From: an uncultured Clostridia bacterium
Lineage (GTDB): Bacteria; Bacillota; Clostridia; TANB77; CAG-508
Assembly: GCA_947581825.1 (NCBI GenBank)
Contig: CANPVP010000001.1
Span: 7,606-39,605 of the forward strand
Reading direction: 5' to 3'
Length of the DNA: 32,000 nucleotides
Shown here: positions 28,706-29,431 of the stretch, piece after piece
Numbering within the stretch: position 1 is the first letter of the stretch
Layout: every line of letters starts with the position of its first letter
Notes under the pieces: generated by a model
Databases searched by the model: none
What the model was told of the DNA's origin: nothing
Seen by the model: the letters and a program-made list of their open reading frames with translations, nothing else
Position numbers and translations under genes: made by a program

Positions 28706-29431
28706 ATGGTAGAGAAAGTGCTAATAATTGATGATAATGCGGAGTTTGTTGTATCACTGTATAAATATATTCAAACAGAAATCACAGATATAGAAACAAT
28801 TGGAATAGCATCAAATGGGAAAGAAGCTTTAAAATATATGGAAAATATAAAACCTAATATTATTATTTTAGATTTACAAATGCCTATATTAAATGGTATA
28901 GAACTGCTAAAAAAACTAAAAAACAAAGAAATTAAAATAATATTAATATCAGGAGAAATAGATCTTATGAGAGAAATATTTATACAAGATGTATATACTA
29001 ATATAGAAAAAATATATATTAAACCATTTAATTTTTGTAATTTGAAAGAGGATTTTCATCGATTAATTCAAACAGATGTGGTCTTGAATGAAAAGAAGTT
29101 AATTCCAAAAATAGATAGAGAATTAGATAAATTTAATTTTAATAAAGCAGGTATTGGATATAAATATTTAATTGAATGTATAATTGAAGTTTATAAAAGT
29201 CCATATAAGTTAAATAATATAGAAAAAAATCTATTTCCTTGTGTAGCAGAAAAATTACATGTTAAGAATCCACAAACTATCAAATGGACTTTAAGAAAAT
29301 TTATAATTTCTATGATAAGATATACAGATACAAAAATAATACTAAAAAACTTTCCGCATACAAAGAATCCTACAACCAAAATGTTTTTAACTAGGATTAA
29401 TGAGTGTATTCATCAAAATATGAATTTGTAA
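28706..29431 (+). CDS. Spo0A-like response regulator (receiver domain + Spo0A C-terminal-type DNA-binding domain)
   Basis: 241 aa with an AAGGAG RBS. Receiver motifs are IIDDN, IIILDLQMP and YIKPF. The C-terminal half aligns by eye with Spo0A: GIGYKYLIECI, KNLFPCVAEKL, and NPTTKMFLTRINECI against KPTNSEFIAMVADKL. Confidence 0.75.
   Translation: MVEKVLIIDDNAEFVVSLYKYIQTEITDIETIGIASNGKEALKYMENIKPNIIILDLQMPILNGIELLKKLKNKEIKIILISGEIDLMREIFIQDVYTNIEKIYIKPFNFCNLKEDFHRLIQTDVVLNEKKLIPKIDRELDKFNFNKAGIGYKYLIECIIEVYKSPYKLNNIEKNLFPCVAEKLHVKNPQTIKWTLRKFIISMIRYTDTKIILKNFPHTKNPTTKMFLTRINECIHQNMNL

Follow-up and report, generated by a model that had tools for sequence, protein, structure and literature searches.

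A conjugative-element-borne response regulator from an uncultured Clostridia bacterium has a Spo0A_C-fold DNA-binding domain, is not Spo0A, and may act through tandem promoter boxes

We analyzed a 32,000-nucleotide stretch of DNA from an uncultured Clostridia bacterium (contig CANPVP010000001.1 of assembly GCA_947581825.1, positions 7,606 to 39,605), referred to here as the window, which has a G+C content of 25%. At positions 28706-29431 on the plus strand it carries the gene of a 241-amino-acid (aa) orphan response regulator, with an ATG start and a GGAG ribosome-binding site 5' of it. The protein consists of a receiver and a DNA-binding domain of the Spo0A_C fold and is a very distant relative of Spo0A, sporulation's master regulator. 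It is not Spo0A but belongs to a distinct, large family of low-GC gut Clostridia that is found mostly on mobile elements, and its gene sits in a serine-recombinase conjugative element. We consider it reasonably probable that the regulator is the middle step of a cascade, in which an extracytoplasmic function (ECF) sigma factor of the element controls the orphan regulator, and the regulator in turn acts through tandem boxes on genes for a secreted protein and a transporter.

Pfam searches placed Response_reg (PF00072) at residues 5-114 of the regulator, with 58.9 bits against a cut-off of 30.2, and Spo0A_C (PF08769) at residues 137-233, with 36.2 bits against a cut-off of 25 and coverage of model positions 2-102 of 104; a short linker separates the two. 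The original prediction, made from the letters of the sequence, had described an apparently functional receiver and a C-terminal half that could be matched block by block to Spo0A of B. subtilis, and both descriptions held. The receiver peptides that it quoted lie at residues 7-11 (IIDDN), 52-60 (IIILDLQMP) and 104-108 (YIKPF). The phospho-acceptor set is intact: the acidic pair D9 and D10, the phospho-acceptor D56, S82 and K106 align with the catalytic positions of the Spo0A and CheY receivers, and the domain is also alignable with the Spo0F receiver. The quoted C-terminal peptides GIGYKYLIECI (150-160), KNLFPCVAEKLHVK (174-187), PQTIKWTLRKFIISMI (189-204, the recognition helix) and NPTTKMFLTRINECI (221-235) were likewise located, and the HMMER profile alignment to the Spo0A structures 1FC3 and 1LQ1 showed the same blocks.

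A single-sequence phmmer search of the regulator against the PDB returned receiver domains only, with no match to the C-domain. A profile built from the C-terminal halves of 13 family members matched only 1FC3 (E 5.8e-10) and 1LQ1 (E 7.6e-10), in each case over the full domain length. In Foldseek the full-length model was swamped by receivers, and the C-domain was therefore modeled alone. The AlphaFold2 model of residues 128-241 had a pLDDT of 94.7, and its best PDB match was 1LQ1_C, with TM 0.84, a root-mean-square deviation of 1.7 A, a probability of 1.0 and 22% identity. Spo0A C-domain chains were the only matches, the next fold having a probability of 0.06. The domain thus scores above the gathering cut-off of the Spo0A_C superfamily and has its six-helix fold with a helix-turn-helix (HTH), and the two checks proposed for it, by Pfam profile and by superposition on 1LQ1, both came out as predicted.

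What did not survive was the suggestion that this is a mobile copy of the sporulation master regulator. TIGR02875, the NCBI equivalog model for Spo0A, gave the regulator 78.5 bits against a cut-off of 200 and aligned with residues 4-187 only, the C-domain is about 22% identical to that of Spo0A, and the protein falls in a separate large family. The recognition helix had been called strongly diverged, and it is. In the profile alignment to 1LQ1 and 1FC3, K193, W194 and K198 sit at Spo0A E213, R214 and H218, so that K-W...K replaces E-R...H and the helix lacks the Spo0A residues of a helix that reads 0A boxes; which of those residues touch which bases we take to be as in the 1LQ1 work. The same three residues are kept in 58 of 94 full-length family representatives. 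In Spo0A itself the residues that contact DNA do not differ even from Bacillus to C. difficile, and the specifically contacted bases of the 0A box, TGTCGAA, are G2, C4 and G5 (PMC3485338). The gene is also outside the context of a single chromosomal spo0A, as the original prediction had said: it lies between PcfJ-like and FtsX genes inside the conjugative element.

We estimated the size of the family with an exhaustive HMMER search of 1.84 billion cluster representatives using the C-domain profile. Matches numbered 12 at E<=1e-30, rose to 470 at E<=1e-10 and reached 3726 at E<=1e-3; taking the middle threshold, we put the family at 470 or more clusters (50% identity). Against this profile, bona fide Spo0A scored only ~42 bits. 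Rescaled to the larger library by our own arithmetic, that score corresponds to E ~1e-5, and the 470 clusters should therefore be a family apart from Spo0A. Among the top 147 representatives, Pfam found Spo0A_C in 142 and Response_reg in 69; one also had RNA_pol_A_CTD and one a LysR HTH. Lengths peak at 235-245 aa, and stand-alone C-domains of about 110-125 aa occur as well. One of these, a 119-aa protein encoded together with a Peptidase_M23 gene at 2620-3705 (-) of locus L118, is convergent to the full-length family member P0015, which is 34% identical to the window regulator. Several relatives have 3-8 tandem Spo0A_C-like domains per polypeptide (P0056, 454 aa; P0057; P0061, 1003 aa; P0123, 849 aa; P0197, 959 aa), some of which may be fused gene calls.

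A scan of species-representative genomes with an 11-sequence alignment found no copy of the regulator more than 47% identical. There was no match by tblastn in the plasmid and phage collections of GenBank, and a search of IMG/VR gave receiver-level matches only and no close relative; the idea that the subfamily is phage- or plasmid-borne was dropped on these grounds. For Spo0A_C proteins other than Spo0A, our searches of the literature turned up no account of a function, an operator or a regulon.

Eleven nucleotides after the stop codon of the regulator gene stand two tandem TTCCTCTTTT boxes with a 10-bp period (29442-29461, +), a candidate operator. About 24 nt after the last box lies an extended -10-like element (the TGTTATATAAT region, 29483-29490, +, with TATAAT at 29485-29490) that has no -35 hexamer and would be the promoter of the transporter genes. 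The window holds exactly two tandem clusters, this one and a set of four boxes on the minus strand (20796-20834; TTCCCC twice and TTCCAC twice, 9-10-bp period). The second cluster is upstream of the gene of a secreted 178-aa protein and again ~24 nt upstream of a -10-like sequence, TATTAT. Scanning the interval from the regulator gene to the FtsX gene turned up no terminator. A generic sigma-70 promoter scan gave 19 hits against 14.2 +/- 3.8 in shuffled sequence, and since this is not above background we used it just to locate the -10.

Tandem TTCCNCTTTT boxes are common to most of about 20 diverged loci of the family. With a search pattern of TT[N][C/T]NCTTTT in tandem at an offset of 8-13 nt, we counted 13 tandem clusters in 19 non-redundant loci (269 kb), against 1.05 +/- 0.93 and a maximum of 4 in 100 dinucleotide-preserving shuffles, an excess of about 12-fold. 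Eleven of the 13 adjoin a regulator gene or lie in the promoter of a co-conserved secreted-protein gene, and the other two are in L004 and L043. Boxes come directly after the stop codon of the family gene in L006 and L007 (proteins 41-42% identical to the window regulator), L096/L097 (48-49%; up to five boxes, TTCCGC or TTCCAC), L098 (43%), L100 (41%) and L004 (47%; three times ATCTAC). In seven loci (L084, L089, L005, L009, L011, L117 and L119) they lie between the regulator gene and a divergent secreted-protein gene and are oriented to the latter, and in three of these (L084, L089 and L005) the boxed position is homologous to 20796-20834 of the window. The boxes persist down to 33% protein identity (L119, L117, L009 and L011). 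A natural polymorphism in box number was also seen: at L002 10727-10804 and L003 6419-6496, the regulator is present as an exact copy, but the promoter region after it has lost 10 bp and has one TTCTTC, as opposed to two TTCCTC.

When 11 promoters were aligned, the core of the last box ended 23-28 nt upstream of a TG-extended -10 (often TGATATAAT) that had no -35 hexamer, and the boxes were always oriented toward the downstream gene. This puts the boxes near -42, -52 and further upstream, the geometry expected of an activator that substitutes for the -35 contact. At Spo0A-activated promoters such as spoIIG, boxes lie at the -35 place upstream of the -10, which resembles the layout here. Tandem 0A boxes, as at abrB and in the 1LQ1 complex, have the same 10-bp spacing as the tandem boxes described here. 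The box itself, TTCCNC(T), shares 5 of 7 positions with the 0A-box complement TTCGACA and keeps two of the three base pairs read by Spo0A (G2 and G5 of TGTCGAA; PMC3485338), with the central one swapped. Together, the 5/7 likeness, the 10-bp spacing and the rewritten recognition helix fit a retargeted DNA-binding domain of the Spo0A type, and we regard the tandem boxes as the candidate operator of the regulator.

The genes behind the window boxes at 29442-29461 would encode a transporter. The first is a 406-aa permease of the FtsX/MacB type (permease 1, 29520-30740, +; Pfam FtsX, 39.7 bits) and the second a 401-aa permease-like membrane protein (30747-31952, +). The latter had no Pfam or NCBIfam match; its layout, with an N-terminal transmembrane segment, a large extracytoplasmic part and a C-terminal transmembrane cluster, reads as that of permease 1. 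Next comes the 5' end of an ATP-binding cassette (ABC) ATPase gene, which runs off the window (31954-32000, +). An identical locus on a 94-kb metagenomic contig (L001) holds the full 228-aa ATPase (ABC_tran), closest to the LolD, MacB and lactococcin-972 export families, followed by a 126-aa lipoprotein-like gene. The ATPase scored 233.6 bits for LolD, 221.8 for L_ocin_972_ABC and 210.7 for MacB, all below the equivalog or subfamily cut-offs. The regulator gene had been predicted to head an operon with two FtsX permeases and an ABC ATPase, and we confirmed that gene order.

The second predicted target is the secreted 178-aa protein (20193-20729, -), which has a signal peptide; its gene is ~8 kb upstream of the regulator gene, and a 58% identical homologue adjoins the regulator of L084. 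Pfam, NCBIfam and PDB searches gave nothing usable for this protein, for the 126-aa lipoprotein-like protein or for a 139-aa secreted protein encoded beside a close relative of the regulator. All of the genes behind boxes that we examined encode N-termini that read as signal peptides. Among them Pfam recognized Amidase_6 in L004, PG_binding_1 alongside an Rv2525c-like glycoside hydrolase in L009 and a RicinB lectin in L096, the others having no match. Neighboring genes included Peptidase_M10 in L117 (a weak match) and Peptidase_M23 in L118, and small membrane proteins often follow the genes behind boxes. From this gene content we infer a role in secreted, envelope-directed and possibly antagonistic functions, together with export or immunity.

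An ECF sigma factor is encoded further upstream in the window (18357-18899, +; TIGR02937, 72 bits against a cut-off of 42.9), with a probable start at the ATG at 18357; the mechanical open reading frame begins at a TTG at 18321. Its gene overlaps that of a 370-aa single-pass membrane protein (18883-19995, +), a putative anti-sigma factor. Searches of Pfam, NCBIfam and the PDB gave no usable match for this protein, so its role is proposed from position and topology. The genes at 18321-20729 have counterparts at L084, a locus of the type that carries the relatives P0009 and P0005 described below, where the sigma factor beside the regulator homologue is 77% identical, the membrane protein 61% and the secreted protein 58%.

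The regulator gene is preceded by an ECF-type promoter (28580-28613, +), consisting of TGAAAC at 28580-28585, 20 nt, and TCTATATA. A putative autoregulatory promoter of the same type precedes the sigma/anti-sigma operon (18276-18309, +; TGAAAC, 20 nt, TCTTATAA). TGAAAC is a typical ECF -35 motif and is the -35 of the SigW type in B. subtilis. Upstream of four regulator genes (those in the window and in L091, L084 and L089), whose proteins are 62-100% identical, the block AATGAAACTTTTT-N-ACTCTATATA is conserved in otherwise diverged spacers. TGAAAC-N20-TCT(A/T)TA is also present upstream of ECF sigma genes, in the window and in L084, L089 and L008. The window (18276 and 28580), L084 (5263 and 7849) and L089 (1294 and 3887) each have exactly two copies of TGAAACTTTT, one preceding the sigma gene and one the regulator gene, and in all three the spacing from it to the -10-like block is identical at the two genes. 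The sigma and regulator genes thus share a promoter sequence, and the regulator gene appears to be a member of the regulon of the element's autoregulated ECF sigma factor. The 12-mer ATGAAACTTTTT, with one mismatch allowed, was found 4 times in the window against 2.2 and is not enriched alone, so the case for the promoter rests on its conservation across loci. In L091, TGAAACTTTT is found at 7317 and 7877 in a stretch that holds no sigma gene; the copy at 7317 precedes the gene of a 137-aa multi-pass membrane protein, which is upstream of the regulator P0054 and may be a further member of the sigma regulon.

The element that carries these genes seems to have inserted into, and split, a penicillin-binding-protein (D-Ala-D-Ala carboxypeptidase) gene. 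A 151-aa 5' fragment of that gene (11377-11832, +; Pfam Peptidase_S11, model positions 5-109 of 239) ends just past the SxN motif and abuts the gene of a large serine recombinase at the left end of the element (11895-13466, -; Pfam Resolvase, Recombinase and Zn_ribbon_recom). The insertion recalls the way in which sporulation genes are interrupted by serine-recombinase elements. A second large serine recombinase gene (13757-15083, -) is interrupted and probably a pseudogene, with a 64-aa N-terminal catalytic fragment (14889-15083, YIRLSKED motif) and a 359-aa remainder (13757-14836). Small sigma-like and HTH genes lie between the recombinases and the ECF sigma gene. The backbone (21788-28440, +) lies between the two putative regulated promoters and comprises a Gp3-like directionality factor, an AAA ATPase, DUF3846, SSB, a PcfK-like protein (weak match) and a PcfJ-like protein; the regulator, the FtsX permease, the second permease-like protein and the start of the ABC ATPase follow it in that order. 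In the 3' part of L001, the ATPase and lipoprotein-like genes are accompanied by DUF5697, type IV coupling-protein fragments, a SpoVG homologue and a SpaA-type adhesin, the T4SS-DNA_transf/TraG-type coupling-protein gene appearing to be split.

A recombinase at a disrupted target, together with a directionality factor, SSB, PcfJ and coupling-protein fragments, marks this as an integrative conjugative element of the serine-recombinase type, although no right end or relaxase was seen. The original prediction was right to place the regulator gene inside a mobile element. Its description of that element as bounded by serine recombinases was inaccurate, because both recombinase genes are at one end and the other end is outside the window. 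The SpoVG homologue (L001 20037-20321, -) is a second regulator gene with a sporulation name on the element. Elsewhere in the window, at 5675-6200 (-), we noted by eye an 87-aa gene that reads as a Phd/YefM-type antitoxin, followed by open reading frames of 49 and 43 aa that look like a frameshifted YoeB/Txe-type toxin.

We also compared the neighborhoods of the closest relatives. P0009, which is 62% identical to the window regulator and present on 58 contigs, lies on a small integrative mobilizable element with the gene order tyrosine integrase, HTH_17, DUF6076, ECF sigma, 378-aa protein, 179-aa secreted protein (-), regulator and Mob_Pre relaxase. P0005 (63% identical) is preceded by a trio of sigma, 379-aa and 183-aa genes on an element with serine recombinases. 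P0054 (71% identical) occupies the same slot after PcfJ on the same conjugative backbone and is followed by the 139-aa secreted protein, an ABC ATPase and two FtsX permeases. Its contig also carries an exact copy of the regulator-transporter module of the window and a truncated third family member beside an insertion sequence. At more distant loci, sigma/anti-sigma genes are adjacent to regulators of 43% (L005) and 37% (L117) identity.

The P0054 contig, NODE_174 of ERZ27249643, offers a side-by-side view of two regulator-plus-ABC modules with different gene orders (L091 7402-13584 and L002 10001-14316). One runs regulator, 139-aa secreted protein, ATPase, FtsX, FtsX, and the other runs regulator, FtsX, FtsX-like, ATPase, small protein. 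The truncated third family member is 197 aa long and adjoins an rve transposase. Linkage to FtsX/ABC genes as a trait of the family was rejected, as only the closest relatives (P0001 and P0054) have it, in the two gene orders. Judged by the relatives' neighborhoods, what the regulators are stably associated with is mobile elements, an ECF sigma pair and secreted proteins, and not the transporter. The word "cargo" in the original prediction was thus half right: the gene is on a mobile element, and its relatives recur in several unrelated element types as part of a module with ECF sigma/anti-sigma genes and a secreted protein.

On this basis we propose the following cascade. An envelope signal would make the membrane anti-sigma factor (18883-19995) let go of the ECF sigma factor of the element (18357-18899), and the freed sigma factor would transcribe its own operon and the regulator gene from the shared TGAAAC-N20-TCT(A/T)TA promoters. 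The regulator, which probably receives phosphate at D56 from a kinase of the host or from a small phosphodonor, would bind head-to-tail to the tandem TTCCNCTTTT boxes, which have a 10-bp period and are centered near -42, -52 and further upstream. There it would activate extended -10 promoters that have no -35, and so turn on the FtsX/FtsX-like/ABC genes (with the lipoprotein gene, where present) and the gene of the secreted 178-aa protein. Domains, fold, distance from Spo0A, gene context and conserved cis-elements are the observations from which we infer binding, activation, sigma dependence and phosphorylation. The module most likely controls secreted proteins that are directed at the cell envelope and may be antagonistic, along with an exporter or immunity pump of the MacB type, and it appears not to control sporulation.

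Several observations weigh against this account. What ties the boxes to the regulator is their tight physical linkage and co-conservation, and the boxes are rich in T while the genome has only 25% G+C. They might be used by a different factor or work at the level of RNA. Helix and box covary in a suggestive way that gives no clean code: D197 goes with TTCTAC/T, and R or Q197 with TTCC[ACGT]C, TTACAC or TTCTAC. The near-identical module of L002/L003 has a single degenerate box (TTCTTC), and no recognizable boxes were found at several distant members (L012, L013 and, in part, L103). It is the position of the boxes and the missing -35 that suggest activation as opposed to repression. In the proposed ECF promoter, the -10 part (TCTATA) differs from the classical ECF CGT motif, and relatives of 30-47% identity have no FtsX/ABC neighbors. 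Finally, about one third of the full-length representatives lack at least one phospho-acceptor residue (D56N, for example), which suggests that phosphorylation may not be essential to the mechanism of the family.

This last point leads to an alternative that overlaps our own explanation, in which the targets are the same and phosphorylation is irrelevant, the activity being set by the ECF-driven amount of regulator and the receiver serving as a dimerization scaffold. No histidine kinase (HisKA/HATPase) was called within 8-10 kb of the regulators of L001-L003 and L084-L092 or within 4 kb of those of L117-L119. The window regulator is thus not half of a linked kinase-regulator pair, and no kinase turned up in the ~20 loci, as this alternative would expect. 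The ECF promoter would also already provide a signal input, and the receivers of about a third of the full-length representatives are degraded. All five catalytic positions are nevertheless kept in the window regulator, and the full set is kept in 60 of 94 full-length representatives, which argues for selection on phosphorylation. We judge the phosphorylation-free version unlikely, though not negligible; with no kinase linked to the gene, a host phosphodonor is likely needed.

Alternatively, the tandem boxes might belong to a host factor, to A/T tracts resembling UP elements or to pyrimidine-rich RNA elements, with the targets of the regulator elsewhere. The low complexity of the boxes in a very AT-rich genome would suit this, as would the natural variant that keeps the module with a single degenerate box, and the CCUC core of some boxes could pair with Shine-Dalgarno sequences. 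We set that last reading aside because many boxes (TTCCAC, TTACAC, TTCTAC, TTCCGC) are without the core, and the central base takes all four values (TTCC[T/A/C/G]C). The 12-fold excess over shuffled sequence is found almost exclusively beside family genes, across proteins of 33-100% identity with otherwise unrelated flanks, and the fixed 9-10-bp period, orientation and distance to the extended -10 are typical of a DNA-bound activator. Ownership of the boxes by something other than the regulator therefore strikes us as rather improbable.

A mobile relative of Spo0A could also cross-talk with sporulation of the host, by diverting phosphate from the kinases or phosphorelay upstream of Spo0A or by competing at 0A boxes, and so alter the frequency of sporulation. 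The regulator is an orphan with an intact receiver and no kinase nearby, so that a host donor would be needed, and the best PDB matches to the family receiver profile were Spo0A receivers (63.9, 62.2 and 61.8 bits), narrowly ahead of Spo0F (61.1 bits). The candidate box shares five of seven positions with the 0A-box complement, and truncated spo0A homologues carried by phages have been proposed to manipulate sporulation (PMC10294663). The preference of the receiver for Spo0A is, however, marginal, and with a single sequence as query CheY-like receivers scored slightly above Spo0A receivers. The regulator is far from Spo0A, at 78.5 bits against 200 and ~22% C-domain identity, has K-W...K at E213/R214/H218, and belongs to a family whose own boxes adjoin non-sporulation genes. 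Many receivers in the family are degenerate (D56N, for example), unlike a phosphate sink, and up to three family members occur per element. Nor are 0A boxes enriched: canonical heptamers (TGTCGAA/TTCGACA) occur 3 times in the 32 kb, against ~3 expected by our own base-composition estimate, with none at the regulator or transporter promoters. On these grounds, interference with host sporulation is to our minds distinctly improbable.

The three perfect 0A heptamers of the window (17106, 17205 and 18082) all lie in the regulatory region of the element, where two flank the region upstream of an HTH gene at 17309 and one is ~190 bp upstream of the ECF promoter. As their total is near the expectation from composition, the clustering may be coincidence.

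Very improbable, finally, is a housekeeping role in excision, transfer or maintenance of the element with the ABC genes as unrelated cargo, which could draw on the presence of relatives in several kinds of element (mobilizable with tyrosine integrase and Mob_Pre, or serine-recombinase) and on L043, where a related conjugative backbone has a member of a more distant subfamily in the same slot, flanked by DUF5697 and PcfJ genes, but is at odds with window boxes that precede transporter and secreted-protein genes and not those for recombinase, directionality factor, PcfJ/K or coupling protein, with secreted proteins behind boxes irrespective of element type, and with L006, L007 and L103, which show no mobile-element genes nearby.

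The cascade from ECF sigma factor to orphan regulator to tandem boxes can be set beside known systems. With Spo0A (TIGR02875; 1QMP, 1FC3, 1LQ1) the regulator shares the Response_reg plus Spo0A_C architecture, a C-domain fold that superposes on 1LQ1 at TM 0.84, a receiver closest to those of Spo0A, Spo0F and CheY, and candidate sites that are short direct repeats with a 10-bp period and 5/7 positions in common with the 0A complement (TTCGACA versus TTCCNCT). Unlike spo0A, its gene is on a mobile element, with multiple copies per element and an ECF-type promoter, and the targets predicted for it, secreted proteins and an ABC transporter, lie outside sporulation. The transporter resembles MacB/LolCDE and lactococcin-972 ABC systems in its LolD-like ATPase, its FtsX permease 1 and the small signal-peptide or lipoprotein gene attached to it. 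It differs from them in an ATPase that scores below the cut-offs, a permease 2 without a family match and the absence of a recognizable bacteriocin gene. Such ABC transporters are usually paired with a regulator of the OmpR or LytTR type and a kinase, not with an orphan of the Spo0A fold.

Other Spo0A_C proteins have been reported from similar hosts. Gut phages carry truncated spo0A homologues that lack the receiver and have been read as manipulators of sporulation (Schwartz et al. 2023, PMC10294663). Those too are Spo0A_C proteins on mobile DNA of gut spore-formers, and the present family also has stand-alone C-domains of ~110-125 aa (as in L118); the window regulator, in contrast, is full-length, with an intact receiver and cis-elements that point to local targets. 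A 2022 preprint by Galperin et al. (10.1101/2022.02.25.481979) lists 11 Clostridiales genomes with more than one spo0A gene: 10 carry two, and Anaerostipes hadrus carries three. The paralogs are counted there, and we saw no function, cis-element or mobile-element context given for them; they are probably proteins of the same kind as the regulator. What appears to be new here is the tandem boxes, the geometry from box to extended -10 and the ECF-type promoter shared by the sigma and regulator genes. The chemistry would not be unprecedented, and each functional step is proposed from sequence.

Spo0A_C has been treated in the field as unique to Spo0A (PMC6136694), and this C-terminal domain is routinely taken as a unique marker of the sporulation master regulator; the window locus has a full-length protein with receiver and Spo0A_C that is not Spo0A. 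Counts of spo0A by domain match would therefore over-call in gut Clostridia and in mobile-element and viral bins, and before a mobile "spo0A" is described as a hijacker of sporulation its recognition helix needs to be checked. The conserved layout of box, promoter and target offers a directly testable regulon and operator for an uncharacterized family of regulators, and what looks like a natural case of the Spo0A fold retargeted to a related but distinct DNA word. More tentatively, and with rather less than even confidence, we propose that Spo0A_C is the DNA-binding module of a large, mostly mobile-element-borne family in gut Clostridia that acts at tandem TTCCNC boxes (at about -42, with an extended -10) below an element ECF sigma/anti-sigma pair, drives secreted cell-wall-active or antagonistic proteins and exporter or immunity pumps, and is gated by host kinases, possibly the orphan kinases of Spo0A. 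The suggested two-tier circuit, an ECF sigma factor followed by an orphan regulator, would be a means by which conjugative and mobilizable elements of gut anaerobes control a MacB-type pump along with secreted proteins that are probably directed at the cell wall.

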